Positions 33,260 through 53,400 of a stretch of DNA of 64,000 nt are shown here, in pieces (the first letter of the stretch is position 1; each line of letters begins with the position of its first letter). Made by a program: the position numbers and the translations under genes. Under the pieces are notes generated by a model. That model made no database searches, had not been told where the DNA came from, and saw nothing but the letters and a program-made list of their open reading frames with translations. The DNA lies in NCBI GenBank assembly GCA_013360285.1, contig JABWCM010000005.1:2149-66148 (forward strand). The letters are read 5' to 3'. This stretch comes from Myxococcales bacterium (GTDB lineage: Bacteria; Myxococcota_A; UBA9042; JABWCM01).

Positions 33260-36200
33260 CTAGTCTTTGATGCAGATAATACCAGCGAAGTAACGAACCG
33301 AGGTTGACTCGTTACCGCCTGAGGGCCCGTAGCCGGTACCGACGTTGTTGACGCTCAAGTCGGCGCCGTCAGCACTGGTCGTGTGAAGGTAAGTCGCCGT
33401 TGTTGGCGTTGTACCCTTTACACGCAGATACTCGCGGTATTTGGTGTAGTTTTCCCACTCGCTGTCGCCGCAGCAGGGTCCACCGCCGGGTGGGCAGTGA
33501 TTGCTTGCAGTACCCGATACCATTCCGTTTGGCGAACCCGAGAAGTTGTTGTCGGAATAATAACATTCGTTGATGTTCCGGTTGTTACGCCAGGACGCCT
33601 CATCGATACCACCGCATTTTCCGTCCGCACCTTCTTCGGTACCTTGGGCGTTACACGTCGTGCTGGGGTGATAGGTGTTACACGAAGTGCAGCCCTGAGC
33701 GAAGTTCTGCTGATCCGAAGGCAACATTTTGTCCAACCGCCATTCGCTCATCGTCGGCGTACCGGCATTGGAAGTCGAACCACAACCGGTGTTGCCGTAA
33801 GAGCTGCAACCCCAGGTCCAGGCGACGTTCCAGTTGTAGCCGGACCATCCGCATTGATTGTGATACGCTTTCTGGCCGGAAACAACGATGTTCCCGTTTG
33901 CCACCTTACGTGCGGCATACTCGGCTGCGGTTGCCCAGTGCCAACCGGTCGGGCATTGGTAATCATAAGTCGGGTTCCAAATCGTCGATTTGGCAATGGC
34001 ATACGCGATGTTGGGATCGGCCAAACTGACACGCCAACCGCCACAGTTATCCGATGTGTCCATCCAGGCCAATGGTCCGGCGGAAACATTTTTCTTACAC
34101 ATAATACCGGCAAACGAAGTGATGGTTTCGTCGGCGCCGGAATCAAGGAATGCGTCGTAGTTACCCGCATGTTTGTATCGACCGGTGACATTGGAGTCGG
34201 AGAACCGGAAATAAGTTCGTGACCGACCACGCCATACATAAGCCGACCATCCACACATGTCGTGATAGGCGTATGGACCTTGGTTGTAGTTGCCAAGTCC
34301 GGTTTTGAAACTCGCGTCCCCTTCCGCGGTGGTCATCCAGTGGTAACCATCTGGGCAAGTGTACACTTTGTTGGGGTTCCACAAGGTGCTTTTGGACACC
34401 ATGTAATACACATCCGGGTCAAAGAACGACTGACGGAAACCGCCGCAGTTGTCGCTGCGATCCCACCAATCCAGGGGGCCTTCAACGTAGTTGTCCTGGA
34501 TACAAACAATACCGGCAAAGCTCGTGAGAGTTCCATCCGTAGCGTGGGCCGACGTTTCATGGGACTCCGAGTGCAGGTAGCGGTTGTTGGTTGCCGAATC
34601 GGAGAACCGGAAGTACGTACGGGTTTGACCATGCCATACCTGGGCACTCCAACCGCATTGGTTCGAGTAGCGGTAAAACGAGCCGGTAGACGGTTGATTG
34701 TCCATGATCGCTTTGTATTCCGCCGAAGAAGCCCAGTGATAACCGGTCGGGCACTGGTAGGGATAGGTTTTATTCCAAACGTTTTGGCGCGCCACGGCGT
34801 ACCGGATTTGGGGTGCCCAAGAAGATTGGCGGAACCCTTTGCAGTCATCGTCGGTCAGCATCCAATCGGTCGTGCCCGGCTTCGGATACGGATCGTCGGT
34901 GATTTTCTTACAGATAATACCCGCAAAGTTAGCCGTTGTTGAGTTGGTCGTACCACGATATTGTTCGTAGTCGCCGGCGTGCATGTACCAGTTGTCAACG
35001 GCCGAGTTGGCAGTGCGGAAGAAATAACGGTTGAGACCCGACGCACCCCACACATAACCGTTCCAGCCGCAAGTACTGTAGTAGTTGTAATGGGTTGCGC
35101 TGTTGCTCGTGGTGAATGCCGCCTGAACGTCGGCGGTGGTTGCCCATACATAACCGGCGGGACAAGCATAGGGATAGGTTTTGTCCCATGTTCCCGACTT
35201 GGCAACGGCGAAGTAAAAACGCGGATCCCATTGGCTCTGGCGGAAACCACCGCAGTAATCGGTTTTATCCATCCAGTCGGTCGGGTCGGCTGCCGGATCC
35301 ACGTCGGCTTTGCAAACGATACCGGCGAAGTATTCGCTGCTTGCACCGTTGGCGATGTCGAACTGCACGGTGTAGGGATCGGCGTTACCCGCGTGTTTGT
35401 GGGCCAAAGTGGTCCCGTCTTTGAACGAATCGGCAAACCGGAAATGGTGGCGGGTCAAACCGTCGTTGAGTGCGCTGTAGCTGTTCCAGCCACACATATT
35501 CTGGTAAACACGGACACCTTCGTTGTTGGTCGTCTTAAACACCGAATAAGCTTCGGCGGTGGTTGCCCAATGATAACCGGTGGGGCATTGATAGTTGATG
35601 TTGGGGTCGTACCAGTTTTTGCGGGCAACGGCATAGTAGAATCGGCTATCAAACGTGCTTTGACGCCAACCATTACAACTGTCCTCGGTCAGCATCCAAT
35701 CCAGTGGCCCCGGAGTAGCCGTCGAGATACAGATAATCCCAGCGAAATCCTGAAGGGACATGGTGGTGCTGGTGGAGGTACCATCATACGACGTGGAGTC
35801 TTTATAAAAGCCGCTGTTCAGTTTGGAGTCGGAAGTACGGAACCAACGGCGATTTTTTCCACCCCACACCGTGCCGCTCCAACCGCATTGATTCTGGTAA
35901 ACCAACGCACCGGCTGCTTGTGGCCCGTTAAAAATCGCTTTCGCTTGATTTGTGGTCATCGGCACAAAGCCATTCGGGCAAGTATAGTTATAGTTCGGAT
36001 CCCACTGATTGGACTTCGCAACGGCATACCAAACGCGGGTATCCCACGTGCTTTGACGGAACCCACCACATTCATCGGTGGTGTCCATCCATGACGGCAT
36101 CAGATCCTGCCCACAGAGTTTGGGATTCGGTGTCGCAATGCCGCCGGAATATTCGCAGCGGTTACCCGGAGCGTAATAAACCCATTCACCGCCTGAAAGC

Positions 36201-37504
36201 ATGCTAAACGAGCTGGCGAGTTTCATGTGGGTGTCGGCCATGTATACATCCCGTTGGCAAACCTGCGTAGGCATCGCAGCGTTGCAAATGGCTTTTTGCA
36301 TCGATGGCGTCGCCGCGGCAAGGTTGTCCAACTTGTCGTTGAGGGTGTCTACTTGGTCCTGCGACGCGTAATAAGAAGCCGGTTGGCCACCTAAGGTCAA
36401 CGCGTCGGTCGAATCCCACACCGGTGAATAGTGGTATCCGTCCACCTTATCTGAGTCATTCGCGTAGTTAACCGTAATATTGTCGGGAATTTGAGCGTCC
36501 GTAGCAGTACCTGTCAACTCACTAAAGTTACTGATGGTCGCGTCATTTTGGCAGGTCCAGCCGGCGGCGCCATACTTCAGGATCTGGCCGGCCGCGCAGG
36601 TGGAGAGAAGACCAAACGACGTACCGGTCAGCGCCACACCGCCGTTGGCGGACGCGGTGTAAACCTGTCCAACGTTAATGCAGGTAGCGGTTCCATCCTG
36701 ATTGATCTTCATGATGGCGCCACCGGTGCAAGTCGTAGTGACCCGGCGTTGCACGTAGGTGTCGTCGATGTGGAAAATCGACCCGCTGGCGGTGAGCCCG
36801 GTACCCGCAAAGTATTGGGGACCTTCGTCATCGGTGCCGTCGGCAAAGTCCGACGGGATTCCGGTGAGTTGCGACCAGTCAACGGTGGCATTTCCGCTGT
36901 TCAGCAGGGTTTTCCAAGAGGTGCCGTCACAAAACGACAACATTCCCTGGTAATAACGGATGGTACCGGCAGCACCGGAGACGCACGCGTCGGTTGTTGG
37001 ACCCACTTGCAGGGTTCCAGACAGCGCCAAGGCATCTGCGTCCAGGTCGCCGACTTCGATGTCGTCGCCTACTTGCAGGAAGTCCGACGCGGGTACCCCG
37101 CCGAGAAACTGAGCGTCACCAGCGAGAACAGCAAATGGAACCGACAGAATTTTCTGTCGTGGCGCCAGGGCTTCGCCTTCAATAATGATCTCCAGCCAAA
37201 GGTCCGATTGGGACATCAACGCACTATCAAGTGCCGACGGTGTTCCACCAGACAAAACCAAACTCATGGTACCATCGGCCACCGCAACATCCTCAAACAC
37301 ACTGGATGTCCAGATTGCGCCGGCACCACCATCGGGCGCTGGGTAAATTTTTGCCTGAACCGTTGCCAGAACCCCGTCATAAGGGGATCCAGCCTGGTTA
37401 AGTTGCCCTGTATAGGGGACGGCCACTGGCACTGCCAAGGCCGGAGCCTGGAGCGCCATCATCAGGGCTAACGCTCCCAACAGTCGAAATCGAATCGAAC
37501 GCAT
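33260..37504 (-). CDS. Giant secreted protein (1,414 aa), paralog A: fibre-like N-terminal region, then six tandem ~125-aa Cys/Trp-rich modules and a Cys-rich C-terminus
   Basis: Signal peptide MRSIRFRLLGALALMMALQAPALA, with GGAGGTG upstream of the ATG at 37504. Six modules each begin D[WT]MxT[DE]DxC[GK]G[FW]RQS.[WF]D.R.[WY]YAV[AS][KR] and then contain YxCPxGYHWATT.E, QCGWSGY.W, YFRFSDS and FAGI[IV]C[IK]. About 60-75% identical to the 45928-50184 protein. Confidence 0.7.
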   Translation of the reverse strand: MRSIRFRLLGALALMMALQAPALAVPVAVPYTGQLNQAGSPYDGVLATVQAKIYPAPDGGAGAIWTSSVFEDVAVADGTMSLVLSGGTPSALDSALMSQSDLWLEIIIEGEALAPRQKILSVPFAVLAGDAQFLGGVPASDFLQVGDDIEVGDLDADALALSGTLQVGPTTDACVSGAAGTIRYYQGMLSFCDGTSWKTLLNSGNATVDWSQLTGIPSDFADGTDDEGPQYFAGTGLTASGSIFHIDDTYVQRRVTTTCTGGAIMKINQDGTATCINVGQVYTASANGGVALTGTSFGLLSTCAAGQILKYGAAGWTCQNDATISNFSELTGTATDAQIPDNITVNYANDSDKVDGYHYSPVWDSTDALTLGGQPASYYASQDQVDTLNDKLDNLAAATPSMQKAICNAAMPTQVCQRDVYMADTHMKLASSFSMLSGGEWVYYAPGNRCEYSGGIATPNPKLCGQDLMPSWMDTTDECGGFRQSTWDTRVWYAVAKSNQWDPNYNYTCPNGFVPMTTNQAKAIFNGPQAAGALVYQNQCGWSGTVWGGKNRRWFRTSDSKLNSGFYKDSTSYDGTSTSTTMSLQDFAGIICISTATPGPLDWMLTEDSCNGWRQSTFDSRFYYAVARKNWYDPNINYQCPTGYHWATTAEAYSVFKTTNNEGVRVYQNMCGWNSYSALNDGLTRHHFRFADSFKDGTTLAHKHAGNADPYTVQFDIANGASSEYFAGIVCKADVDPAADPTDWMDKTDYCGGFRQSQWDPRFYFAVAKSGTWDKTYPYACPAGYVWATTADVQAAFTTSNSATHYNYYSTCGWNGYVWGASGLNRYFFRTANSAVDNWYMHAGDYEQYRGTTNSTTANFAGIICKKITDDPYPKPGTTDWMLTDDDCKGFRQSSWAPQIRYAVARQNVWNKTYPYQCPTGYHWASSAEYKAIMDNQPSTGSFYRYSNQCGWSAQVWHGQTRTYFRFSDSATNNRYLHSESHETSAHATDGTLTSFAGIVCIQDNYVEGPLDWWDRSDNCGGFRQSFFDPDVYYMVSKSTLWNPNKVYTCPDGYHWMTTAEGDASFKTGLGNYNQGPYAYHDMCGWSAYVWRGRSRTYFRFSDSNVTGRYKHAGNYDAFLDSGADETITSFAGIMCKKNVSAGPLAWMDTSDNCGGWRVSLADPNIAYAIAKSTIWNPTYDYQCPTGWHWATAAEYAARKVANGNIVVSGQKAYHNQCGWSGYNWNVAWTWGCSSYGNTGCGSTSNAGTPTMSEWRLDKMLPSDQQNFAQGCTSCNTYHPSTTCNAQGTEEGADGKCGGIDEASWRNNRNINECYYSDNNFSGSPNGMVSGTASNHCPPGGGPCCGDSEWENYTKYREYLRVKGTTPTTATYLHTTSADGADLSVNNVGTGYGPSGGNESTSVRYFAGIICIKD

Positions 37505-37760
37505 CTCCGCACCTCCGCTACGTGGTTGGGGAACCTGCGCAGAATCCCCGGGGTTCACTGCACATATCACAGTCTCTCCGTACTCTCGCGTCACGGAAAG
37601 TTCAGAATAACTGTTTCTGCCCATTGATCCGGGATCTGCGAGCGCCAGTAATTTGCCGCCAGTCTTGGTACCCATCGAAACGCCTCTGCCAAATTGTCAA
37701 TAACACATCAAACACGCACCACGTCGTTCCGGCGCGGCTTTCACCGCACCCAGTTTTGGG

Positions 37761-40700
37761 CTACGGGCAAATCCCGCAGTCGGAAGGACAAAACGAACAA
37801 TACTCGTAACTTTCACAAATGCCGTTCCCGCAGTCATACAACTCGCAGGAATCAACACAGTTATTTCCGTTTGCATCGGGTGCAACCGGTAATTTTAGCG
37901 CATAGTAGATCACCAACTGCACGTCGATTACGTTCAAATTCGTATCACAGTTGAGATCGCCAATTGTTGTCGGTCCGATCAAACACGCTGGAAGCGGACC
38001 GGTGTCGCCGACAAGAAAATACAAAGCCAATAGTGATGTACATTGCGCATCGACTACGTTTGTCATGCCGTCGCCGGTGACATCGCCTTTGAAGAGGCAC
38101 GCGCAACCTTCATCGAAACTTTCGTCGCAGTCGTTATCGGAGTCATCACAGAACTCAAAGTTCCGTCCATGAATTTCGTCAACGATTCCACTACTATACA
38201 GGTCGAGAATATCTGCGGAGTCAAGCGCAAACTCGTAAAGTGCGATCTGATCAATGAGACCATTAAACACTCCACCGTTTCCGGTAAACCCGACAACAAA
38301 ATAGCCTTGAGTCGTAAGCAGTGAATCGCCGTCGCCAGGATCCGACGCACAAATTTCGCTACCATCAACGTAAAGTTTACAACCGTCCACCGACCCGCAG
38401 GAAAGGGCGACATGATGCCAAGCGTCATCGGCCACAACAGGTCCTTGACCGGAACACGTCGCTGTGCCGCCGGCAGTGGCAACGGAATAGGACAGTTTTC
38501 CTCCAGTGACGTTGAGTGTGCGGTCGTAACCACCCACTCCAAGTGGTGTGCCGGCCGACGCCATCATGATGCCACCGTTGGTGGCGGTTTTAATGTAGGC
38601 GGTCAACGTGAAGTTCGACTCAGGAATATTGGCGGTAGAGCTAAGATAACCGCCGAAACCGGATAACTTAAGCGCACCACCCTGATAGCCGCTGGCACTA
38701 AGTGTTGCCGGTGGAACCGCTGCGGCATTGTTTCCTGTGCCGGAGCCGTCGATGATTTGTGTGCTCAGCACATCGAATTCCCATAGCGCCACGGGCCCGG
38801 TGTTAACACACTCAATGCCTGTGATCGCCGAAACACAATCCAGTCTGCCGTCTTCACAGAGGTCGGCATCTCCGGCGTCGCACAATGTTCCGATGGTGGG
38901 ATCTTGTGTACCTACGCAGTTTCCAGCCACACATTGATCTGACAGTGTACAAACGTTGCCGTCGGTACACGGGCCAGGGGTCGCGGCATAAATGCACCCA
39001 CTGTTCACGTTGCAGGTGTCTGATGTGCACACGTTGTTGTCGTTGCAGACGGAGTTGTTGGGTGTGTATTGGCAGCCAAATGTTGGGCTGCAGCTATCGG
39101 TTGTGCAAGCGATGTTATCGACACACACCAAACCTTCGTTTTTGCATCCGACACCGGACTCACAACTATCCAGCGTACAAGCGTTGTTGTCATTGCAACT
39201 GGTGACGATTCCGGTCGGTGTGCAGATTCCGTCGATGCAGAACGCCAGTGCCACACAGGGGTCTCCATGGTCGCACGTAAAGAGGTTGTCGAAGTAGACA
39301 CACCCGGTTCCGGGTACACATACGTCGTTTGTGCAGGGATTGCCATCGTTACAATCGAGCGGCACATTAGGAAGGCAACCGAAGAACGAATCACATGTTG
39401 GAACGGTGCATATGTTGCCGTCTTCGCAGTCAGGCGCGGGGCCACTTACGCAGCCGATGTCTGAAATGCAGGTGTCGATCCCGGTGCAGAAATCCCCGTC
39501 TCCGCAGACTACTTCCGTACCCACACAGTAACCGGATACGCATTTGTCACTTTCTGTACAGGTATCGCCGTCATCGCACGCGGCTCCCGGCGTATCGCAA
39601 AATACTGCCGGTACACCGGTAAAGATGGTGCTGTCTTCGACTTCTACGATCAACGGTACCGCGCCGGGTCCGCTTGCTACTACCGACGTCGCGACGACCG
39701 GAGCTGGTTTGGATGGATCGATGTCGGCACTCAGCACAAAGGTCAGTGCCAAAAACACCGGATCACCATCTATTCCACCGGGAATTTCGTATGCGTCCGT
39801 AATCGGTGCGGTCGGTGTACCAAAATTCAGCATCGCGAGGGTTGCAGCTCCGCTCCAGTTGGAGGGGGTACCTGGAGCCATCAACAAGAGATGTCCCGAA
39901 GGCAGGGCAACCGATGGAGGGTAGGTTGGTACACATGTCTCGCATGCGGTCAGTTTTTGCGCTGTCAGCGAAGGAGGATAGGCGAGACTCAGTTGAAGGG
40001 CCGAAGCGTTTGGCTCAGGTTGTTGGCGGCGAGCTAGTTTCAACAAACAAACCGCAGTAGAACCGGCGTTTCCGCTGATTTGGCAAAGAACATTTTCGGT
40101 TACGTTGTAGCAGAACTCCGGAGCATAGATGCAGCCGGTTGCGCTGTTGCACTCCTCTTGTGTACACGGGTCGCCGTCGTCGCAAGAATGCGGCGGATAG
40201 GTACATCCCGCCAAGGGATCGCATGTATCATCCGTGCACAAGTCGTTGTCGTTGCATATAACAACCGTAGACGAATCACAGGCTCCGGCACTGTCACAGG
40301 TGTCGATGGTGCATTGATTGCCGTCTTCGCAATCAGGGGACGGGCCAGCCTGGCACCCGAGAGAGGGGAGGCAAAATTCGATCCCATTACAAAAGTCGCC
40401 ATCGTCACAACTGGTCGTGGTTCCGACACATACTCCGGCTACACACGTGTCGTTGGTGGTGCACAAGTCTAGGTCATCACAAGCGCTGCCGTTTTCTGCG
40501 CACAAGGTCGTGTACGCATCCGTTACGATAAGGTTGTTTTCGACCGTCGCTTTGAGCGGAACGGCTTGCGCGCCGGTGGCAATCACGTTGGTGGCTTTGA
40601 CAAACACTGGAGTCTCTGGTGCAACGTCTTGCTCCAGAGTGAAGAAGCCAACGAGATACTCGACGTCGCCTACCGTCGTCAGTCCGTCCACGTAGCCGGT

Positions 40701-43700
40701 TGTCAACGGGGAATCCGAACCGCTGAAATCCAGGGACAACAAATTTCCGGAACCACTCCAGGCGCCAGGTGTGCTCGGCGACAGCGCGACGGTATGGCCG
40801 GTAGAAAGTGGTGCGGGCGGAGTGGGGAACGCACAACCCGAGCACTCCTTAAACATGCTCAATGTTGCGGTATTCGGGTAACTTAGCGTCATTTGTATGG
40901 ACGAAGCAGATTCTTGATCAACTGTTCGTTTTGCAATACGAATTAGGCATTCCTGTACGCTGCCTGCGGACCCCGACAATTTACAAATCACATCTGTGTC
41001 GTTCGGGTCGTAACACGCCAGAGGCTGATGAATGCAGCCTTGCACTGGGTGGCACGAATCGGCTGTACAGTCGTTTCCGTCATCACACGACAGTCCTGGA
41101 TTGTTGATACATCCCACCGCGGGATTACAGGTGTCGGTGGTACAGGCGTCATTGTCATCGCAGTCGGTTGCTCCCGAAACAAAACACCCGGTTAAATCAT
41201 CACAGCTTTCGGTTGTGCACGGATCTGAATCAGCGCAGTTGGGAGATGGGCCAGACACACAACCAGCCAAGGAATCGCAGAGTTCAAGGCCATTGCAGAA
41301 CAGTCCGTCGTCGCATTCGATTTGTTGTCCAACACAAAACCCGGTAACACAAATGTCTCCGCTGGTGCACGCATTTCCGTCATCACATGGCATGCCGGAA
41401 GCAGCGCAGGAAACCGGATACTCGCCGGTTAAAATCACGCCATCCTCAATCGAAGCGTCGAGCGGATACGCTCCTGGTCCTGTGGCAAGAATCCCGGAGC
41501 CAACAACGGCAATCGCGTTGTCGAGTGCCACATTTTCGACCAGGGTAAAATGCGCAATTACAAATACGGGGTCACCCTGAATCGCGCCACCGTCCATGTA
41601 TGCCGATGTGATCGCGTCGTCTGGATTGGTGAGGTTCACAATTGCGAAAGTGCCGGTTCCAGACCAGGAAGCAAGGTTTGGTGGAGCGAAGCCGACGGTA
41701 TGTCCGTTCACGAGTGTATTCAGTGGTGGAATGGTGCCCGGACAACCGTCGCAGCGAGTAAGATAAGACAGGGTGGCGCCGTTTCCGTAACTTAACGTTA
41801 GTTGAAGTGCGGCGGCATTGTCTTCAGAAAAATCCCGTCGAGCGAGTCGCAGCGGGCATGTTACCGTTTCTCCGGCGAGACCGCTCAGTTCACACAACGT
41901 GTTCTGGTCATAGGTAGGGTCATAACAAAAGAGAGGAACATATTCGCAGCCCACCGAAGGTACGCAAATGTCGTCGGTACATGCATCTCCGTCGACACAG
42001 GTCGCCGAAATATCATCATAAACACAACCGATAGCCGAGTCGCAGGAATCGGCGGTACAAGCGTTGTTGTCATCGCATACAACTGTCGGTAGTGACACAC
42101 AACCCAGAACGGGGTCACATCCGTCGTTTGTGCACGCATCGCCGTCGTCACAATTGGGGACTGGTTGCGATTCACACCCTGTAGCCGCGTAACAGGACTC
42201 CAGCCCATTACAAAAGTCGCCGTCGTCACACGTTATCGGCGCACCGACGCACAATCCGCCGATACACAGGTCACCGCTGGTGCAAGCGTCGCCATCATCA
42301 CACGGAACCCCGCTGTCTTCGCACACTACGGTATACGGATTCGTTACGATGATCGTATCAATGACCTCGACGCTCATCGGTGATGCGGTGCTGTTCGCTG
42401 CGAGAATATCGTTCGCCACTACATGTAAGGGAGCGGAAGGTAGTATGTCGGACGCCAGCGTAAACCACGCGACAAACAAAGTCGCATCGCCGTTTACCGT
42501 GGGGCCAGTCATCCATGCGTCCGTTAGTGGATCCGTTTCTCCGGAGAGCGGAAGGGCCAAAATCGTTCCCGACCCGGACCAAGCGTCGAGTGTCGGCGGA
42601 TTTAGCCCCACGATCTGCCCGTGCGGAAGCGGCGAAGGGGGAACCGGCGCTGGGCAGGCTTCACACGCGGTAAAATGCGTGATTTCCGCTTCCGCCGGAT
42701 CGAACGTTAACGAAAGCTGTACACTGGATGCTGCGGACTGCGCCATCGCACCGCGCGCGAGCCGGACAATGCAAGGAACTGTAGCACCCGAGGTCCCCGA
42801 CAAGGAGCATACAGTGTTGGCGGGTACGGTTGGGTCATAACAAAACAGCGGCGTGTAAACACACTTTCCCGGTGCTTCGCAGATCTCGCTAGTACAAACA
42901 TCACCATCGTCGCATAGCCCGGCGATTTGGTTGTTTTGGCATCCGGTTGCAGGGTTACAGGTGTCTGTCGTACAGGTGTTGTTGTCGTCGCAGTCCACGA
43001 TGCCGCTGGGTAGACACCCGATGTCGTCATCACACAATTCGGTGGTGCACAAATCGCCATCGTTGCAATCGGGAACAGGACCGGACAGGCAGCCGCTCGA
43101 CGGCACACAGACTTCGATTCCGTTGCAGAAATCTCCGTCGTTACAGTTCACAGGTTGGCCCGCACACACACCGGCAACACATAAGTCTGACGTCGTACAG
43201 AGGTTGTTGTCATTACATGGGGCACCGGGTGTGGCACACGTTACCGTATTGTCACTTACAACAATAACCTTGTCTCCGTTTACGCTCGCCATCATCGGAA
43301 CAGCACCCGCACGGGCTACTGTGATATTGCCCGCACGAACATAAATGGGATTCGCTGCGTCGACATTTGCGGTCAGTTGAATGTTTGCGACCACAAACAT
43401 GGCTTCCCCGTTCAAAGTCCCGCCGTCGTAGTAGCCGTCCAACAGGGCGGTATCGGGGGCTCCAACATGAAGCGCTAGGATGGTGCCGTTCGTTGTCCAA
43501 GCAGACGGATTAATGGGGGATAACGACAGGATATGACCGCTGGACAGGGTTGTTGCAGGCGGAAACGTCGGCAAACAACCATCGCACTCCGTAAAGTGAG
43601 CTAGTGCGGTGTTTGACGGAAGTATCAGGCCAATTTGGGTGCTTACGGGTAACGACGTTGCAGCGTCTTTTCGCGCAAGTCGTATGGGGCAAGCCACCGT

Positions 43701-44819
43701 GCTGCCGGCGGTCCCCCAAAGTGAACACAGTGCGTCGTCCGGTACCGTAGGGTCAAAACAAAACAGCGGCGTATGAGAACAACCCGCTGGGCCCCCGCAA
43801 ACGTCGGCGGTGCATACGTCTCCGTCGTCACAGACCGAAGCATCGGGTGTGTATGTACAACCTGTAACCGGGTTGCAACTGTCTATTGTACATGTGTCGT
43901 TGTCATCGCAGACCGTCGGCGTCCCAAAATGACAGCCGGCAGCAGGATTACACAGGTTTGCAGTGCACGGAAGGCCGTCGTCACAGGTAGCTGGGGTCCC
44001 CTGCGCGCAGGAACCGCCCGAACAATAATCAATGCCGTCACAAAAATCGCCGTCATCACAACTTACAGCTATACCAATGCAGTAGCCCGCAAGACAGGTG
44101 TCTCCTGTGGTGCAGGGATCGCTGTCGTTACATGGCGCACCATTAAAAGGGCACGCCGGCGGAAGAAGAGTGGTAATAATTCCATCTGTGGTTTTCGTAA
44201 TTAGCGGAATGGCGCCTGTGCCACTTGCGACCGCACCGGTAACGACAACCAACTTCGGGTTTGCAGCATCGACGGTTTCGCCCAACACAAAGTTTGCTAC
44301 CAGCACGACTGGATCGCCAACCAGCAAACCATTGTCCATGTGCGCATTTGACAAAGGGGGGGCATCAGGATCAAAGCTCAGCAGCAACAGGGTGCCGGTA
44401 CCGGGCCAGTCGTTCGGATCATCGGGGGACAGTGACACGATCTGCCCCGTATCAATGGAGATAGCCGGAGGAAATGAGACTGGGCAACCCTCACATTCAG
44501 TAAACGACTGTAGGCTAAGACCTTGAGGAAAATCGAATTCAAGTTGGAGTGCTATAGCGCCGTCTTGGCTCGGATTGGCGCCTGCAACACGGATGGGGCA
44601 GGAAACGGTCGAGCCGGCAGGCCCGCTGATTTCGCACAAGACGTTCGGTTCAATTGCTATGGCGTTAGCGGCACAAAAAACAACCGATGCGGCGACCATC
44701 GTGGCGACCGCCGTGTGGCAGTGGGCCAAATGCCGACCGTTTTCTGCGGCTTGGCGCCCTACCCATCGACACCGATTGACGGTGCTGGCAATGATGTTGA
44801 CAGCGGCATTCGCCGACAT
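37761..44819 (-). CDS. Giant secreted scaffoldin-like protein (~2,350 aa): 8 cohesin-like modules alternating with CDDGxxCTxDxC repeats, then LamG and a C-terminal dockerin pair
   Basis: Eight ~165-aa modules (LCEISGPAGSTVSCPIRVAG...ALQLEFDFPQGLSLQSFTEC...) resemble type-I cohesin (G.TV.VPV.....G.I...DF...YD...L). Each is followed by 6-7 copies of a ~24-aa repeat C[DN]DG[DN].CT.D.C.P..GC. A LamG-like region (LWEFDV...AWHHVALS...LYVDG) follows. The C-terminal dockerin segments are GDVTGDGMTNVVDAQ and GDLNCDTNLNVIDVQ. The start is placed at the ATG at 44819, with AGGAAAGG 6 nt upstream. The alternative is 44699. Confidence 0.65.
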   Translation of the reverse strand: MSANAAVNIIASTVNRCRWVGRQAAENGRHLAHCHTAVATMVAASVVFCAANAIAIEPNVLCEISGPAGSTVSCPIRVAGANPSQDGAIALQLEFDFPQGLSLQSFTECEGCPVSFPPAISIDTGQIVSLSPDDPNDWPGTGTLLLLSFDPDAPPLSNAHMDNGLLVGDPVVLVANFVLGETVDAANPKLVVVTGAVASGTGAIPLITKTTDGIITTLLPPACPFNGAPCNDSDPCTTGDTCLAGYCIGIAVSCDDGDFCDGIDYCSGGSCAQGTPATCDDGLPCTANLCNPAAGCHFGTPTVCDDNDTCTIDSCNPVTGCTYTPDASVCDDGDVCTADVCGGPAGCSHTPLFCFDPTVPDDALCSLWGTAGSTVACPIRLARKDAATSLPVSTQIGLILPSNTALAHFTECDGCLPTFPPATTLSSGHILSLSPINPSAWTTNGTILALHVGAPDTALLDGYYDGGTLNGEAMFVVANIQLTANVDAANPIYVRAGNITVARAGAVPMMASVNGDKVIVVSDNTVTCATPGAPCNDNNLCTTSDLCVAGVCAGQPVNCNDGDFCNGIEVCVPSSGCLSGPVPDCNDGDLCTTELCDDDIGCLPSGIVDCDDNNTCTTDTCNPATGCQNNQIAGLCDDGDVCTSEICEAPGKCVYTPLFCYDPTVPANTVCSLSGTSGATVPCIVRLARGAMAQSAASSVQLSLTFDPAEAEITHFTACEACPAPVPPSPLPHGQIVGLNPPTLDAWSGSGTILALPLSGETDPLTDAWMTGPTVNGDATLFVAWFTLASDILPSAPLHVVANDILAANSTASPMSVEVIDTIIVTNPYTVVCEDSGVPCDDGDACTSGDLCIGGLCVGAPITCDDGDFCNGLESCYAATGCESQPVPNCDDGDACTNDGCDPVLGCVSLPTVVCDDNNACTADSCDSAIGCVYDDISATCVDGDACTDDICVPSVGCEYVPLFCYDPTYDQNTLCELSGLAGETVTCPLRLARRDFSEDNAAALQLTLSYGNGATLSYLTRCDGCPGTIPPLNTLVNGHTVGFAPPNLASWSGTGTFAIVNLTNPDDAITSAYMDGGAIQGDPVFVIAHFTLVENVALDNAIAVVGSGILATGPGAYPLDASIEDGVILTGEYPVSCAASGMPCDDGNACTSGDICVTGFCVGQQIECDDGLFCNGLELCDSLAGCVSGPSPNCADSDPCTTESCDDLTGCFVSGATDCDDNDACTTDTCNPAVGCINNPGLSCDDGNDCTADSCHPVQGCIHQPLACYDPNDTDVICKLSGSAGSVQECLIRIAKRTVDQESASSIQMTLSYPNTATLSMFKECSGCAFPTPPAPLSTGHTVALSPSTPGAWSGSGNLLSLDFSGSDSPLTTGYVDGLTTVGDVEYLVGFFTLEQDVAPETPVFVKATNVIATGAQAVPLKATVENNLIVTDAYTTLCAENGSACDDLDLCTTNDTCVAGVCVGTTTSCDDGDFCNGIEFCLPSLGCQAGPSPDCEDGNQCTIDTCDSAGACDSSTVVICNDNDLCTDDTCDPLAGCTYPPHSCDDGDPCTQEECNSATGCIYAPEFCYNVTENVLCQISGNAGSTAVCLLKLARRQQPEPNASALQLSLAYPPSLTAQKLTACETCVPTYPPSVALPSGHLLLMAPGTPSNWSGAATLAMLNFGTPTAPITDAYEIPGGIDGDPVFLALTFVLSADIDPSKPAPVVATSVVASGPGAVPLIVEVEDSTIFTGVPAVFCDTPGAACDDGDTCTESDKCVSGYCVGTEVVCGDGDFCTGIDTCISDIGCVSGPAPDCEDGNICTVPTCDSFFGCLPNVPLDCNDGNPCTNDVCVPGTGCVYFDNLFTCDHGDPCVALAFCIDGICTPTGIVTSCNDNNACTLDSCESGVGCKNEGLVCVDNIACTTDSCSPTFGCQYTPNNSVCNDNNVCTSDTCNVNSGCIYAATPGPCTDGNVCTLSDQCVAGNCVGTQDPTIGTLCDAGDADLCEDGRLDCVSAITGIECVNTGPVALWEFDVLSTQIIDGSGTGNNAAAVPPATLSASGYQGGALKLSGFGGYLSSTANIPESNFTLTAYIKTATNGGIMMASAGTPLGVGGYDRTLNVTGGKLSYSVATAGGTATCSGQGPVVADDAWHHVALSCGSVDGCKLYVDGSEICASDPGDGDSLLTTQGYFVVGFTGNGGVFNGLIDQIALYEFALDSADILDLYSSGIVDEIHGRNFEFCDDSDNDCDESFDEGCACLFKGDVTGDGMTNVVDAQCTSLLALYFLVGDTGPLPACLIGPTTIGDLNCDTNLNVIDVQLVIYYALKLPVAPDANGNNCVDSCELYDCGNGICESYEYCSFCPSDCGICP

Positions 44820-45137
44820 GTTGCCCTTTCCTTGCGCCGTTTCTGGGTCACCTGAACCCACCGCGGCACCTAAACCGTCATTAAGCCAACATTTGGACAA
44901 GACCAGGTGGCTTGTCGCCGTTTCTCCGCGCGTACCCTGCGTTTTCTTCGCAGCTTTCGGTGCTGACGCACCCAAAGACGCTGTCGGGTCTGGAGGCTTA
45001 AGTTAGCGTGGGTCCGCTAAATGCTTGTTCGCTTTGGTTTTGCTACAACATTTCTGACGGAGCCTACGTGATATCGTAATGCACGGAACTACGAGCGAGC
45101 TGAGTAAACGAGCGCACTCGCGCAAATATCCATTCGC

Positions 45138-45927: not shown

Positions 45928-48900
45928 CTACAGTTTGATGCAGACAATTCCGGCGAACTGGTCCTGCCCGGTGTAGTTTTCCACGGGCTGATTATCGTTG
46001 TCGGCGGCATCTTTGGCCGTATTGTTGGTTTTGGAATCAGCGAATCGGAACCAACGACGTGTAAGTGTACGTCCCTGAATTTCGCTGTTACCGCAACACA
46101 CGCCGTTGTAGCAATGGTCGCCATACGTACCTGAGACAATGTTCTTCGGAGTTCCAGAAACGCTGTTTGGCGACCAGTAGCAGTCATTTAACTCCTGACC
46201 ATTTCGCCACCGGGGCTCGTCAATTCCGCCGCATTTTCCATCCGGACCGGAAGTGGTTCCGGAAGACTGGCACGTGCTGGTGTAATTTTGACATTGTGTA
46301 CAGCCAAACGCGAAGTCCGACGCTGCGGTCATGATTTGTCCCATAGTCGGTGACGGAGATGCGGTGCCCGAACCACAGCCGGCCTGGCCGTAGGAGCTGC
46401 ATCCCATCTGCCACAGTGGGTTCCAGTTGGAACCGCTCCAACCACATTCGCCCCAGTAGGTGTTGGCTGGGAAACTCGGGTTGTTGTTGAAAGCAACTTC
46501 GCCGGAATTGGCCCACTTATAACCCGCGGGACAAGCATAGGTACGGTCACGGTCCCACACGGAACTTTTTGATACCACGTACAATACGTTCGGGTGGGAA
46601 GATGAAGTACGCATGCCACCACAGTTATCGGAGGTGTCGACCCAGTCGAGAGCACCGGCGGCTGCGTCTTTCATACACAGAATGCCCGCAAAGTTAGATG
46701 TGGTGTCGGTAATATTAGCAGTGATATATGCTTCGGGTTCGTCCACGTGTTTGTATCGCAGCGTCAAGTTGGAGTCGGCGAAACGGAAGTAGTGACGGAG
46801 TAGTCCGTGCCATTGATTGTTTGGCACCGTGTAGTCTTGTGATGTTGTCCAACCACACTCTCCGCGATAAGAACGCTGCGCTTCGTTGATGATGTTTGCG
46901 GTGTTGTATTCTGCACCAAGGCGGAACACCACGTTTGCTTCGTTGGTCGTCATCCAATGGAATCCCGGCGGACAAACATAGGTTTCGGGGTTGTTTTTGG
47001 CCCACGTGTTGTTCCGGGCGATTGCGTAGTAGACCCGCGGATCCCACGCCGACTGACGAAACCCGCCGCAGTTGTCGGTTTTGTCCATCCATGCGGTTTG
47101 ATCAGCAGGTGGGGAGTTGGAAAGACATACGATACCCGCAAAGCTGGTCATCGGAGTCGAGCCAAAGGTCGAATAGAGGGTTGGTTCGGCGTGCGCCGCG
47201 TCGAAATATCGTTTTGTGCCGGAATCGCCTGTGTTCCAGGTATCGGAGAAAAAGAAATACTGACGATAACGATTTTCCCAGTTGTAAGCGCTCCAACCAC
47301 ATTGGCCATGATATTTGTAATAGTTTGTGCTGCTGCCGACCATCAAGTTGTCGACTTCGGTGGAAGCCGCCCAGTGGTAACCCGTGGGACATGTGTACGT
47401 ATAACCCGGCTTGAAAATGTTTTGTCGAGACACAGCAAAACGAATCCGCGCATTCCAGGTAGACTCACGGAAACCTTTGCAGTCGTCGCTGGTTTCCATC
47501 CACTCCGTGGTTCCTACCGGCGGATAAGCAGGCGTTCCTGTTTTTTTGCAGACAATTCCTGCAAATTCACTGGTTGCGCCGGACGTGGTGCCTCGGTAAG
47601 AATCGGCATCTGCGGCGTTCATGTAACGATTGGTTCCGGTGACGTCCGGTTTGATTCGGAAATAAACACGTTGTACGCCGTTCCAATACTGGCCGCTTGT
47701 TGAAGACCATCCGCATTGGTTGCCATATACACGTTGGTCAGACGAGGGGTTGGACGTGGTGAATGCAGCGTCAATTTCGGCGCCCGTCGCCCACGTATAG
47801 CCTGCCGGACATTGGTAGTCCAAGGCTGGGTTCCAAGTCGTAGATTTCGACACCGCGAAGTAGAAGTTGGGGTCCCATGAACTCTGACGGAAACCGCCGC
47901 AGTAGTCGCTGGTATCCATCCAGTCGGTCGGAGATACGGTCGGATCTTCTTTCATGCAGACAATGCCGGCAAATTCGGTCAGGGTTTTGTCATCGAACTG
48001 AACGGTATACATTTCACCGTTGCCCGAATGTTTGTATGCGCCGGTCGCCAATCCCTCGAACGAATCTTTGAAACGGAAGTAGTACCGGTTCATGCCGTTT
48101 GCCTGCATGTCGTAGCCGGTCCAGCCACATTTGCCGTTGTAAACCGTTCCCTGATTCAACGTCGTTTTGAACACGGCGTACGCTTCTGCGGTGGTAGCCC
48201 ATTTGAAGCCCGTGGGACATTGATAATTGAAGCCATATTCATACACGTTACGACGAGCAACCGCATAGTAGAACCGGCTGTCAAACTCACTTTGTTTGAA
48301 ACCGCCACAAAGGTCCTCGGTGAGCATCCAGTCCAATGGACCTGCCGGCGTTTTGGAGATACACACCATTCCAGCGAAGTTGGTCAACGTGCCGGATGTG
48401 GGCAACCCAAATCCGTCTGCGTGTGTGGAGTCTTTATAATAGTACTGTGACTTGCCTGAATCTTTGTAGCGGAAGTAGGTTTTGGTTTGGTTTTTCCAAA
48501 CGTTGCTCTGCCAGCCGCATTGGTTTTGGTAGGTTTTAGCACCGGCATTGTTTGCGCCTTTAAAAATCTGCTTCGCTTGTTCGACGGTCATTGCGTCGAA
48601 CCCTGCCGGACACTCGTAGTTGTAGGCCGGATCCCAGACGTTGCTTTTGGAGACCGCGTACCAAACCCGCGTATCCCAAGTGCTTTGACGGAATCCACCA
48701 CACAGGTCGGTGGTGTCCATCCAGGACGGCATCAGGTCCTTCGCACATTGTTCCGGAGCAGGTGTCTCGATTCCACCTTGGTATTCGCAGCGATCTTCCG
48801 AAGCGTTGTAGCTCCATGTGCCGCCGGACAACAACATCATCGAATACGGATCCATGGATGGATCGGCACCCGCCATGTGAACACTCCGTTTGCAGACTTT

Positions 48901-50184
48901 TGTCGGCAACGAATTCTGGCACAGGGCTGTTTTTTCGGCCGGCGTGAGCGCTGGGTCCGGAAATCCACCGGTTGCCGCGTCGATCGCTGAAATGGCCGAC
49001 GATGTGGCAAATTGATCGGGGGCGAGGCCTTGTAGGGTTTCCGAATCGGTGGAGTCCCACACCGGACTATAATGATGGCCGTCAACTGTGTCGGCGTCTT
49101 TGGACCAGCCTACGGTCAGCGCGTCGGAAATCTGACCGTCCGACATGCTGCCACCGATGGAACCGAAGGTTGTGTTGTTGGTGTCGTTGGCGCAGTTCCA
49201 TGCCCCAGCAGACCACTTCAACAACTGGCCGGTCGTACACGGCTTCAGACCAAGCGCGTTGCCGGACAACTGCATGCCGCCGCTGGCGCTCACCGTATAA
49301 ACATTGCCGACCGGTGCGCATACCGCTGTTCCGTCGGAATTGATGGTGCGCATCGCTTGACCGCTGGGACATTCGGTGCCCACACGCCGTTGGAATTGCG
49401 CCACGTCAACATAAAACCCGGCACCTTGAGCGTAGAGCCCGATGCCTGGATAGTACAGATACTCCGTGGAGTCATCCGTTCCGTCGGCGATGGTCCCCGG
49501 AATGTTTCCGACGTCGTTCCAATTCAACGAGGTCAGCGGTGCCGCCGGGTCGATTTCTTGCCACGACGCACCGTCGCAGTACTCGAGGAGTTTCGAGGCG
49601 GATACGTACCGAACAACGCCGGCGTTGTCCATGTCACAGTCGGTGTCGCCCCAGCCGATTTTGGCGCCTGCGTTGACACTTGCGCTTCCGCTGGCAGTGA
49701 CCGCTTGCACCGTTGCGGAATCTCCCATCTGCAGGAAGTCGGCCGGCATCATGCCGTCGAGTGCCTGTGCGTCGTGGGCTTCTACCGCGAACGGTTGAGA
49801 GCGTAGTCGCTGACGAGGCAGCAACTTATTGCCGTCAATGGTGAATTCAATCCACAAGTCGTTCGATGTCAGCGCATCTGTTCCGAATTGAGGAGTGCCG
49901 CCCGTCAAAACTAGGCTAAATCGACCGTCGGCAACTGGAATGTCTTCCAAGGTCGAGGACATCCATACCAACCCGGTATCTCCCGAAGAAGATGCCACGT
50001 TGAATATACGAACCTGGACCGCTGAAAGTACGCCGGTGTAATCGGCGTCATTCAACTGGAGCCGGCCGAAGTACGGCATTTGTGCCGGTGCGGCGAAAGC
50101 TGGGACAGTGGTTCCGAGCGCAAGCGCTGCGGCTAGGACATAAAGGTAAGGATTGCGACTACCGCGCTTCTTCATCTGCATCAC
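45928..50184 (-). CDS. Giant secreted protein (1,418 aa), paralog B of 33260-37504
   Basis: Same architecture as paralog A: signal peptide, VPYTGQL/MPYFGRL N-terminal region, six D.M.T.D.CGGFRQS modules, and a shared C-terminus CGGIDE..WRN......CY...N..SG.P...VSGT...HC.....CCG.SE. Confidence 0.7.
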   Translation of the reverse strand: MMQMKKRGSRNPYLYVLAAALALGTTVPAFAAPAQMPYFGRLQLNDADYTGVLSAVQVRIFNVASSSGDTGLVWMSSTLEDIPVADGRFSLVLTGGTPQFGTDALTSNDLWIEFTIDGNKLLPRQRLRSQPFAVEAHDAQALDGMMPADFLQMGDSATVQAVTASGSASVNAGAKIGWGDTDCDMDNAGVVRYVSASKLLEYCDGASWQEIDPAAPLTSLNWNDVGNIPGTIADGTDDSTEYLYYPGIGLYAQGAGFYVDVAQFQRRVGTECPSGQAMRTINSDGTAVCAPVGNVYTVSASGGMQLSGNALGLKPCTTGQLLKWSAGAWNCANDTNNTTFGSIGGSMSDGQISDALTVGWSKDADTVDGHHYSPVWDSTDSETLQGLAPDQFATSSAISAIDAATGGFPDPALTPAEKTALCQNSLPTKVCKRSVHMAGADPSMDPYSMMLLSGGTWSYNASEDRCEYQGGIETPAPEQCAKDLMPSWMDTTDLCGGFRQSTWDTRVWYAVSKSNVWDPAYNYECPAGFDAMTVEQAKQIFKGANNAGAKTYQNQCGWQSNVWKNQTKTYFRYKDSGKSQYYYKDSTHADGFGLPTSGTLTNFAGMVCISKTPAGPLDWMLTEDLCGGFKQSEFDSRFYYAVARRNVYEYGFNYQCPTGFKWATTAEAYAVFKTTLNQGTVYNGKCGWTGYDMQANGMNRYYFRFKDSFEGLATGAYKHSGNGEMYTVQFDDKTLTEFAGIVCMKEDPTVSPTDWMDTSDYCGGFRQSSWDPNFYFAVSKSTTWNPALDYQCPAGYTWATGAEIDAAFTTSNPSSDQRVYGNQCGWSSTSGQYWNGVQRVYFRIKPDVTGTNRYMNAADADSYRGTTSGATSEFAGIVCKKTGTPAYPPVGTTEWMETSDDCKGFRESTWNARIRFAVSRQNIFKPGYTYTCPTGYHWAASTEVDNLMVGSSTNYYKYHGQCGWSAYNWENRYRQYFFFSDTWNTGDSGTKRYFDAAHAEPTLYSTFGSTPMTSFAGIVCLSNSPPADQTAWMDKTDNCGGFRQSAWDPRVYYAIARNNTWAKNNPETYVCPPGFHWMTTNEANVVFRLGAEYNTANIINEAQRSYRGECGWTTSQDYTVPNNQWHGLLRHYFRFADSNLTLRYKHVDEPEAYITANITDTTSNFAGILCMKDAAAGALDWVDTSDNCGGMRTSSSHPNVLYVVSKSSVWDRDRTYACPAGYKWANSGEVAFNNNPSFPANTYWGECGWSGSNWNPLWQMGCSSYGQAGCGSGTASPSPTMGQIMTAASDFAFGCTQCQNYTSTCQSSGTTSGPDGKCGGIDEPRWRNGQELNDCYWSPNSVSGTPKNIVSGTYGDHCYNGVCCGNSEIQGRTLTRRWFRFADSKTNNTAKDAADNDNQPVENYTGQDQFAGIVCIKL

Positions 50185-50462: not shown

Positions 50463-53400
50463 CTAAAATACCGGGTTGGAGACTACGCAGCGTACGTGAG
50501 CGGACGAGGTTTTCGTGGCGAATCCCGTACCGCCATAATATTGATACGCTACCCACGCCTGTGACGGGAAAACGTCCAAAGTCGTCGACGACCAATACTG
50601 TTTGTTGGCCGCGGATCCGAACACGGTTGTGTCGATTGCGCCGTCGTAAACATTGTTTTGTAATGACGCCAATTCGGAAATCGTTGGCAATCTCCAGAGA
50701 TCGAGGTCAGCATCGGTCAGATTTTCGCAGTGCGATAGTGCATTTGTCCATGAATCGGCCGGACCGGGGTCGGTTTGCCACAATAGATCTGTCCAGGGAT
50801 CGAAGGCCACCGTCGTCTCGGCGATTTTCGCCGTAAAAAAGCGATGCGGAACCGTTTGTGGTTGTCCTTGTCCGTTGACACAAACGATGCCCAGTTTCGC
50901 CGTCTCATCGGAGATTGCAACAAGTCGCCCGTCGTAGGCGTCGACAGTCCACCTCGATCCGGCGAATGCCTGCGTATTGGTCCACAATAAATCCGAAGAA
51001 GATGCGGATGTTGCGGCTGGGTGAACAAGGGCCGGGTCGTGTTTGCCAAAATGTATCAAAGTCCACAATTCGTGCCACGAAGGCACTCTCCACGGCTGTC
51101 CATCAATCAAATCCCCATAATTTGTGCATATTGTTGTTGCCGACGAGTAGGAACCTTTTGCAGTAGATACGGGCGACCAGAAAAGACCGGTCTCATTGTC
51201 GGCCCAAACCTGCCCTGACACGCCGGTTAATGTGAGCTTCTGCATTCGATTTGGCGAAAACCAATCCTCTTCCAGGTTAAGTTGTCCATCCTGGCCGCAA
51301 CCGGGTGTAAGGCCACACTGTTCCGTGGGAGGATTGCATATCAGCACCAAATCCGGTTGCGATGCGGAATAACATTTTTGTTGGCCGGTATCCGGTGGCC
51401 ACGGCATCGCAAACGGAAGCCCATTTGGCTGACCGGCGGGTATCCAGGTGACTCCGGACGGCAGGGGGTGAGGTAAGGCGATACACATCCCCGTGTCACA
51501 AACGCCTGTCGCCGATCCCACTGCCGTACACGGTTGTGCATCCATCGGTTTTGGATTAAACGCGCATTTTCCCGTTTCTGAGTCGCAATTGTCGATTGTG
51601 CATGCCAGACCGTCGTTGCAATTAACCAACGTTGTTCCTGGTACACATTTCCCAACCTTACAACTGTCTCCAACTGTACACGCATTGTTATCCGTACATG
51701 CCCCCAAAATCGGGGTAAATACGCATCCTTTGGTGACAGAGCAGGTATCGGCGGTACACGCTTCGTTGTCGTTGCAAACGGTGGGCGTTCCTGGTTTGCA
51801 TTTGCCGAATTCACAATGATCCGGCGCAGAACACGGATTTCCATCGTCGCAAGAGAGCGACGATTGTGCGGCCACAAAAAAACACCCGAGCAATGGGTCA
51901 CACTCGTCGAAGGTGCACACCTCGTTGTCGTTACAAACAAGTGTGGTCAATGCTTCGCAGGTTCCGTTTTGGCAGCTTTCGGACGTTGTACAGAGGTTGT
52001 TGTCGTCGCACAGCGTGCCGGTGAGTGGTATCGGGGTGGCGCAGCCAGTATCGACATCGCACGGGGTTTCCATACATGGATTGCCGTCGGAACAATCGAG
52101 CGGCGTCCCTCCCGCGCAGATGTTTTCGAAACAAACCGTGTCGGTTGTGCAAGCATCCCCATCGTCGCACGCGGCGCCATTTTCCACCGCAACGTACTCA
52201 CAAACGCCGTTTTTACACGAATCGTTGCTGCAGGGGTTGTCGTCATTGCAATTGACGGATTCTTGGCCTACGCATGCGCCGTTTTTGCAGATATCGCCGG
52301 TTGTACACAAGTCATCGTCGTTGCAGGCTGTGCCCGAGATCTCAACAAAAGTGCAACCACTTGTGGGATCACAACCATTTTCCGTACACTCGTCGCTGTC
52401 CTCACAGGTCTTTGGTTTTCCTCCTGTGCATACCCCATTGTTGCATAAGTCTTCGACCGTACAGGGATTGTTGTCTTCGCAAACCTCGCCATCGACGGCA
52501 ATATAAGAGCATCCCATGGTATCTAAACACGTGTCGGCGGTGCACGGGTTTTGGTCATCGCAGGTTTTGGGTTTGCCGCCGGTGCATTCGCTGTTTTCAC
52601 ATACACCGCCGGCAAGGCACAGCCCGGGACCGTCGCACAATCCACCATTCAGCGGTTCATACGCGCAGCCAACTTCCGGGTCGCATAGGTCTTTTGTGCA
52701 CGGGTTTTCATCATTGCAGTCGAATAACCACGTTCCCATACACAAACCACGTGTACACTTGTCGGATTCGGTGCAAGGTTCGCCATCATCACACGGAACA
52801 CCTGTTATGGCTTCAAATGAACATCCAACTTCAGGTACACACGAATCTTCCGTACAAGGGTTGTTATCTTCACAAATTGTTGGTGTATCTGAGCGACATG
52901 TCCCCTTGTTACACACCTCGTTCGCAGAGCATATATCGCCGTCATCACAGGGCTGCCCCGTCGCCGGAATGGAGACGCAATCGCCTTGCTCATTACATTC
53001 CTCAGTAGTGCAGACGTTGTTGTCGTCACAATCGCTGGGGTCACACGTTGTCGCCGCGTCCCCGGTGGTGTCTTCGTTGTGTGCCGTGTCATCGAACTCG
53101 TCTTCGCCGGTATCATCGGTGCTGTCGGCAACGGTTGCTGTATCGCCTCCGGTGTCGGAAATGAGATCCGAACCTTCCACGTCACCCAGTTGGTCGCCGG
53201 ACTGTGTATCCTCCGGCGTGGTTACGTCCGGATTGGCAACGTCAATCGAGACGTCGTCCTTGATGTTTGTGTCCTCCTCAACGACACATTTGCCGGCGAT
53301 GCAGGTTTCTCCCAATTGGCACCCGGGAGTTAAAGCAACAAATTCTTCTCCCGTGGACGAACATTGATAAGGGTTTCCGTCAATACAACTTTTTTGGTTT

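Follow-up and report, generated by a model that had tools for sequence, protein, structure and literature searches.

Link modules and compact C-type-lectin-like domains (CTLDs), such as those of LYVE-1, CD44, TSG-6 and aggrecan G1, are extracellular polysaccharide-binding domains of ~100 aa with two disulfides, and in collectins and attractin a CTLD is placed after stalk-type regions. In bacteria, Lcl's C-terminal domain (Lcl-CTD, DUF1566), which is CTLD-like, binds sulfated glycosaminoglycans without Ca2+ motifs (PMC11162425). The mosaic adhesive trimer (MAT) proteins of Bdellovibrio are surface-displayed, prey-binding trimeric fibres that combine an invariant N-terminal domain with swappable adhesive tips, one of which, that of Bd2740, has a C-type lectin fold (PMC10769870). 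Here we describe two giant genes, A and B, within a stretch of 64,000 nucleotides (the window) from contig JABWCM010000005.1 of a Myxococcales bacterium (GCA_013360285.1), each of which encodes six tandem copies of a module that matches no named family. We consider it somewhat better than an even chance, with a probability of roughly 0.55, that both genes encode fibre adhesins which are secreted, displayed on the cell surface and follow the MAT plan, with the modules as their ligand-binding units.

Genes A and B and their likeness to MAT fibres

The two genes lie on the same strand, and the parts of A that precede the modules are as follows.

33260-37504, reverse strand: gene A, 1414 aa, read from Met58 of the open reading frame (ORF) 33260-37675 (ORF list and translation)
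37433-37504, reverse strand: predicted Sec signal peptide of gene A, MRSIRFRLLGALALMMALQAPALA, signal-peptide-like as read from the sequence
37061-37432, reverse strand: putative MAT-like N-terminal anchor domain of gene A, limits approximate, from a partial, sub-threshold match to NF053851
36101-37060, reverse strand: shaft region of gene A, colinear with gene B and ending in a small conserved 4-Cys segment before module 1
45928-50184, reverse strand: gene B, paralogue of A, starting at the GTG at 50184 or a nearby ATG

A GGAGG sequence stands ~8-12 nt upstream of the gene A ATG at 37504, and the modules occupy only the C-terminal two thirds of this gene. An exact look-up of gene A returned no record. 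A and B are 47% identical and colinear over their full length, and they are not adjacent, as an unrelated 2404-aa protein and a 226-aa dockerin protein lie between them. The first-pass annotation had spoken of two giant paralogues bearing the module; gene B is indeed the second copy, and the adjacent 2404-aa giant is not.

Both N-terminal regions are weakly recognised by the profile NF053851 (Bdello_MAT_N), the one match of A and B in NCBIfam, that of A with 20.6 bits (E 3e-4) and that of B with 29.6 bits (E 5e-7), where the cut-off is 60 bits. Pfam and PHROGs gave no match for the N-terminal regions of A and B or for the shaft of A, and a PDB sequence search with the N-terminal region returned none. 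Four database homologues of this region (P0160-P0163) have the layout of A, that is, a signal peptide and A-x-A followed by (V/A)P..Y.G.L. Two of them score higher against Bdello_MAT_N (P0161, 42.9 bits; P0162, 41.7 bits), and the homologues cover both halves of the profile; these better scores suggest that we are dealing with related domains outside the curated MAT family. The four homologues have unrelated C-termini, with phage tail-fibre-like segments in P0161 and P0162, and the combination by which MATs are recognised, a conserved N-terminal domain with interchangeable C-terminal tips, is thus found among the relatives of A and B. In addition, the shaft motifs QRRV..C..G..I...DGT..C and TDAQIPDNITVNYA.xSDKVDG.H.S are common to A, P0160 and P0161. 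Judged by sequence, A and B therefore appear MAT-fibre-like, a likeness that had escaped the earlier reading of this DNA, yet they fall below the threshold for curated membership.

Like the MATs of Bdellovibrio bacteriovorus, for example Bd2740, A and B would combine a signal peptide, a conserved N-terminal domain, a shaft and a variable C-terminal binding end. They differ in that the N-terminal match is partial and sub-threshold, that six tandem modules stand where a MAT has one trimeric cap, that the modules resemble none of the solved MAT tips in sequence, and that the host is Myxococcota-like rather than Bdellovibrio. We term the organism Myxococcota-like, and take it to be of a sparsely sampled lineage, because the nearest named relatives of the pyruvate kinase encoded in the window, from 'Myxococcales bacterium' MAGs, are only 43% identical to it.

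The 4-Cys segment that closes the shaft is conserved in both paralogues (approximately 36101-36300, reverse strand; ORF residues ~460-525 in A and ~420-485 in B), with the pattern C..(A/S).(M/L)PT.VC(Q/K)R.V(Y/H)MA ... (N/D)RCEY.GGI.TP.P..C..DLMPSWMD, and may be a small linker domain between shaft and module array.

The six-module array

The limits of the modules were set by regular expressions and MAFFT, and the scores given for A1 to A5 are those of a hidden Markov model (HMM) built from the ten uninterrupted copies.

35723-36100, reverse strand: module A1, 176.7 bits
35306-35707, reverse strand: module A2, 169.0 bits
34904-35284, reverse strand: module A3, 172.1 bits
34496-34873, reverse strand: module A4, 180.3 bits
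34091-34477, reverse strand: module A5, 182.9 bits, the copy modelled with AlphaFold2
33266-34075, reverse strand: module A6, its core split by an insert, so that the HMM aligns in two parts (2-80 and 72-126 of the profile)
33449-33820, reverse strand: Cys-rich insert in A6, ~124 aa, from an alignment of six orthologous sixth modules
48355-48732, reverse strand: module B1, HMM and alignment
47950-48339, reverse strand: module B2, HMM and alignment
47542-47931, reverse strand: module B3, HMM and alignment
47119-47511, reverse strand: module B4, HMM and alignment
46669-47100, reverse strand: module B5, HMM and alignment
45934-46653, reverse strand: module B6, with a Cys-rich insert, HMM and alignment
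~46000-46400 (approximate), reverse strand: Cys-rich insert in B6, from an alignment of sixth modules

All 12 copies can be aligned, with pairwise protein identities of 34-61%, and the count of six in each gene and the four invariant Cys residues are as originally described. Also invariant are W4, D9, G13, S17, Y39, P42, G44, Y71, G76, W77, F90 and F122-A123-G124. Each of the ten uninterrupted copies scores between 158 and 183 bits against the HMM, and a six-frame scan of the window found no further module outside the 12. A size of ~125 aa had been given for the repeat, which holds for these ten copies (126-144 aa; a domain of ~126 residues) but not for the sixth of each gene, where A6 and B6 extend to 270 aa and 240 aa around an insert that the first-pass annotation had missed; its example string was also misquoted at the start, since A1 begins SW... 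and not DW.... Trp, Tyr and Phe together make up 15-21% of the residues of the uninterrupted modules, and the linkers between modules are short (5-12 aa) and Pro-rich. At the DNA level the copies are ~60-76% alike, in short stretches only, and Tandem Repeats Finder (TRF) detected no tandem repeat array there; given this divergence, a collapsed repeat or assembly artefact can be excluded.

Four more genes with the same layout were found by profile search and genome scan in metagenome-assembled genomes (MAGs) of Myxococcota (one each in L005 and L007, two in L006). One of them, P0015, lies on a contig labelled 'Myxococcota_JABWCM01', and three of the four belong to 'Myxococcales bacterium AMX-MBFR-64', two in tandem and one alone; the G+C content of these MAGs is 69-71%, compared with 54% in the window. 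All six genes, A and B included, have exactly six modules, of which the sixth is split. In 35 of 36 cases a module is most closely related to the one that occupies its own position in another protein; identity averages 54-59% between modules of like position and 46% between the others. Because modules of like position are the closest, the array arose before A and B were duplicated and before these lineages diverged, and on these sequence comparisons it is old and fixed.

The Cys-rich insert of the sixth module contains 10 Cys residues that are invariant across the six orthologues, together with conserved W, G and N, and has no match in Pfam. It is placed after the strand that follows QCGW and ahead of the R.YFRF strand, and smaller insertions are seen near the same site in B5 and in some other members of the family. 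In the AlphaFold2 model of module 6 the core is confident and the insert has a predicted local distance difference test score (pLDDT) below 50; A6 would thus have the same core fold as the other modules, interrupted by the insert, which may itself form a distally placed small subdomain rich in disulfides. Canonical C-type lectins bind ligand through a 'long loop', and the order of secondary-structure elements in the model suggests that the insert site corresponds to this loop.

Predicted fold and extent of the module family

Searches for a named family were negative throughout. Against Pfam-A (2025 copy), the whole of A and B, 10 modules and 43 diverse members gave nothing but noise, even at E ≤ 10; NCBIfam release 20 had no match on the modules; and a PDB sequence search gave no match with a 10-sequence module profile and, with a 43-sequence profile, only chance all-helical AlkF-type matches (E 0.26). 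Full-text literature searches with the motifs GGFRQS, FAGIVC, YFRFSDS and QCGWSGY found no paper, and nothing relevant was found in the literature on VPLPA-CTERM or on CTLDs together with Myxococcota adhesins. The module, which had earlier been left without a family name, is on this sequence evidence a previously unnamed domain family.

We modelled module A5 with AlphaFold2 from a 21-sequence alignment (pLDDT 93.3, predicted template modelling score 0.88). The model opens with a short β extension at the N-terminus (strands 14-16 and 23-28), after which come a further strand and a single helix (50-56); the C-terminal half is rich in β structure, and its last strand is FAGIVC. Its structural neighbours are, by our own classification, C-type-lectin-like folds only, among them the Lcl_C/DUF1566 structure 8q4e, all at low scores; Foldseek returned no matches in PDB or BFVD. 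The consistency of the neighbour list makes the C-type-lectin-like class, which had been suggested at first from motif spacing, credible, and the low scores point to a very divergent branch of it. The module is likely, if not proven, to be a distant C-type-lectin-like domain in which a two-stranded N-terminal extension precedes a one-helix CTLD-like core.

Two disulfides are supported by the way in which Cys residues are lost together across the family. Among 141 full-length domains, 103 have all four Cys, seven have lost C1 and C3 and kept C2 and C4, one has lost C2 and C4 and kept C1 and C3, eight keep only C4, and about 17, mostly PEP-CTERM proteins, have lost all four. This co-loss in pairs suggests C1-C3 and C2-C4 disulfides, and the latter link is plausible from the positions of C2, immediately ahead of the first core strand (CPxG), and of C4, within the last (FAGIVC). 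Two disulfides per module would be shared with Link modules and compact CTLDs, which are likewise small extracellular domains. However, the module has no sequence similarity to these (PF00193 Xlink matched neither the modules nor the 43 diverse members), just a single clear helix is seen in its model, it carries at the N-terminus a further β extension of ~40 aa with the CGGFRQS motif, and the pairing C1-C3 / C2-C4 would differ from the nested disulfides of Link modules and CTLDs.

The kind of search that had been recommended for the module was made with a profile, exhaustively, against 1.84 billion representative proteins, and recovered 460 clusters at E ≤ 1e-3, of which 306 remained at E ≤ 1e-10. 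By sequence the family spans both bacteria and eukaryotes, which had not been noticed before. In most architectures the end of the module is no more than 1-3 residues away from the C-terminus, and every partner domain is extracellular.

The simplest carriers are proteins of ~185 aa in which one or two modules stand between signal peptide and PEP-CTERM or VPLPA-CTERM tag, from Rhodobacterales, including Pacificoceanicola onchidii and Puniceibacterium sediminis, and from a Pseudomonadota MAG. In this MAG (GCA_039815465.1; L002, 8001-8561) the module lies between signal peptide and VPLPA-CTERM tag and lacks all four Cys, and its gene adjoins an exopolysaccharide-export locus (Poly_export, Bac_transf and a TPR protein). 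Single-module carriers are named in RefSeq by their sorting tag only, as 'VPLPA-CTERM sorting domain-containing protein'. In larger proteins, one C-terminal module follows a stalk of Dicty_CTDC repeats (P0045, P0065) or DUF4215 (P0028), and other bacterial proteins join the module to PKD, bacterial immunoglobulin (Ig) or TSP3 domains. Elsewhere it comes after Ig I-set domains (P0033, P0039), after collagen and five Ig domains (P0165, a predicted protein), after Kelch and Ephrin_rec_like repeats (P0139), or after K/E-rich N-termini that we judged by eye to be helical. The module is internal in giants of 2-8 thousand aa, among them a protein of Aphanomyces stellatus, an oomycete, and one labelled 'ELWxxDGT repeat protein'. 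Two contigs resemble animal genomes (L001, ENA ERZ21742408, 1.94 Mb; L004, ENA ERZ18545485, 1.02 Mb; 41-45% G+C): they contain Ig I-set exons and retrotransposon reverse transcriptase, and their genes stand in tandem arrays in which the module has an exon of its own behind those for Ig, with five copies in 20 kb of L004. In many unrelated architectures, therefore, the module as read from sequence typically occupies an extracellular 'head' position after stalk-type domains. Such an arrangement is like that of collectins and attractin, although the module belongs to a different domain family.

The proposed role, its alternatives and the locus

In the model that we favour, A and B would consist, from N- to C-terminus, of a signal peptide, a conserved anchor domain, a shaft of ~300 aa with tail-fibre-like motifs and a chain of six modules joined by Pro-rich linkers, the chain taking the place of the single tip domain of a MAT. 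The modules would probably bind glycans or other polymers of cell surfaces or matrix; six modules per chain would give high avidity, and a fibre would carry eighteen if it were trimeric like the MATs. Module 6, with its 10-Cys insert, would be the most distal and a specialised unit. Surface display, trimerisation, the binding function and the nature of the ligand are all what we infer. Binding to carbohydrates or surfaces, already suspected by the first-pass annotation, is proposed here from the modelled fold and from domain architecture, because of the fold class, the two putative disulfides, the high aromatic content and the 'head' position after stalk domains. Furthermore, the glycan binding of Lcl-CTD without Ca2+ motifs indicates that heads of this kind can bind glycans in a non-canonical manner.

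Several points weigh against this proposal. The Ca2+/sugar motifs of lectins (EPN, QPD and WND) are absent from all 12 modules, and PF00059 (Lectin_C) matched neither the 10 modules searched nor the 43 diverse members; the matches to the MAT N-terminal profile are far below the cut-off and cover positions ~115-160 of 162, about a third; known MATs have one trimeric tip and not six tandem domains; and the giants of oomycete type hold the module internally, ~600 aa from the C-terminus. In addition, the most conserved residues are the same in bacteria and eukaryotes and could have a purely structural role, and the fixed number of six with position-specific conservation would, to judge from sequence, fit a structural rod as well.

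The main rival is that the modules mainly form a rigid beads-on-a-string stalk and that only module 6, through its Cys-rich insert, contacts a ligand. In its favour, the count is fixed at six with position-specific sequences in six genes from four genomes, the linkers are short, a large conserved insert is found in module 6 only, and the module is internal in giant eukaryotic proteins. However, the module elsewhere is mostly single and at the extreme C-terminus after Ig, collagen or Dicty_CTDC domains, as expected of a head and not of a spacer, and it occurs singly in PEP-CTERM proteins that have no other functional domain. We consider a mere stalk unlikely.

A non-adhesive extracellular role, whether as a self-assembling block of a matrix or S-layer-like structure, as an APT-like receptor-binding domain of a toxin, or as a small catalytic domain, seems to us distinctly improbable. 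PEP-CTERM proteins are often tied to exopolysaccharide and matrix loci, which speaks for such a role, but toxin or enzyme domains occur in none of the architectures examined, the module is far smaller than FGE-like domains, and its conserved residues form no recognisable catalytic set.

Resemblance to DUF1566, a domain found in a neighbouring protein, had been noted from the spacing of conserved residues and raises the question of whether the module is a divergent member of Lcl_C (PF07603). The two occupy the same position after Dicty_CTDC repeats, and the module, with its predicted CTLD-like fold, shares with the CTLD-like Legionella Lcl the lack of Ca2+/sugar motifs and a place at the C-terminus as the head of a stalk made of repeats (collagen or Dicty_CTDC). 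At the level of sequence the resemblance does not survive: neither the 10 window modules nor any of the 43 diverse members matched PF07603 (gathering score 34.9 bits) at E ≤ 10, and hhalign of the A1 profile with the second Lcl_C domain of the neighbouring protein (50463-53534) gave a probability of 0.05% over one aligned column. Lcl-CTD is, moreover, an obligate trimer without disulfides (PMC11162425), in contrast to the two that we propose for the module and its six tandem copies. Membership of this family is therefore very improbable. Finally, an origin of the repeats in faulty assembly or in chance is already refuted by the low identity of the copies and their per-module HMM scores, by the absence of near-identical DNA repeats and of a TRF array, and by the same six-module layout in independent MAGs of very different G+C content.

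The other genes of the locus are listed below, the last four of them being upstream neighbours.

37761-44975, reverse strand: 2404-aa protein with six super-repeats of ~305 aa
45138-45818, reverse strand: small protein of 226 aa containing a type I dockerin (27.5 bits), located between gene B and the 2404-aa giant
50463-53534, reverse strand: protein of 1023 aa in which seven stretches match Dicty_CTDC and a pair of Lcl_C/DUF1566 domains (108 bits) stands at the C-terminus
53570-56314, reverse strand: MMPL/RND-type transporter
56581-60021, reverse strand: 1146-aa CHRD-domain protein
60163-62151, forward strand: DUF4331 and cupredoxin protein
62161-63990, reverse strand: hybrid PAS histidine kinase with a receiver domain

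Each super-repeat of the 2404-aa protein consists of a ~160-aa module, followed by Dicty_CTDC Cys repeats, and the motif CxxSGxAGSTVxCPIRLA recurs at aa 114, 417, 723, 1028, 1331 and 1631. This ~160-aa unit had no Pfam match at E ≤ 1, so that a cohesin-like identity, which we considered, has no support from Pfam; as far as sequence goes, it is a second unrecognised module at the locus. The C-terminus of the protein carries LamG_3 and a weak dockerin-like match, which together with the 226-aa dockerin protein hints at a dockerin-based assembly system. The stalk-plus-head plan of the 1023-aa protein is that of P0045 and P0065, which bear the module instead of Lcl_C.

What is new here is a domain family that probably belongs to the C-type-lectin-like folds and a putative multi-tip MAT-like fibre; existing concepts are unchanged, but studies of Myxococcota that are surface-attached or predatory could draw on these findings. 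Once defined, the module would provide an annotation for several hundred clusters of proteins, bacterial and eukaryotic, and it would add a branch to the C-type-lectin-like folds, marked by its single helix, its β extension at the N-terminus and disulfides paired C1-C3 and C2-C4. For the organism, an uncultivated member of a Myxococcota-like lineage, our analysis points to adhesive fibres of MAT-like type beyond Bdellovibrio and makes their six-module tip a candidate for the recognition of cell surfaces or prey. More tentatively, and in our view rather unlikely as a whole, the module may found a cross-kingdom family of lectin-like recognition heads, deployed as exosortase-sorted single domains in marine bacteria, within giant surface proteins in oomycete-type protists and in Ig-gene tandem arrays in an animal-like organism, and arming MAT-type fibres with up to 18 sites for prey or substrate in the Myxococcota-like lineage. 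If this is true, recognition by chimeric fibres in the style of Bdellovibrio would extend to a second predatory phylum, with a multi-tip design.

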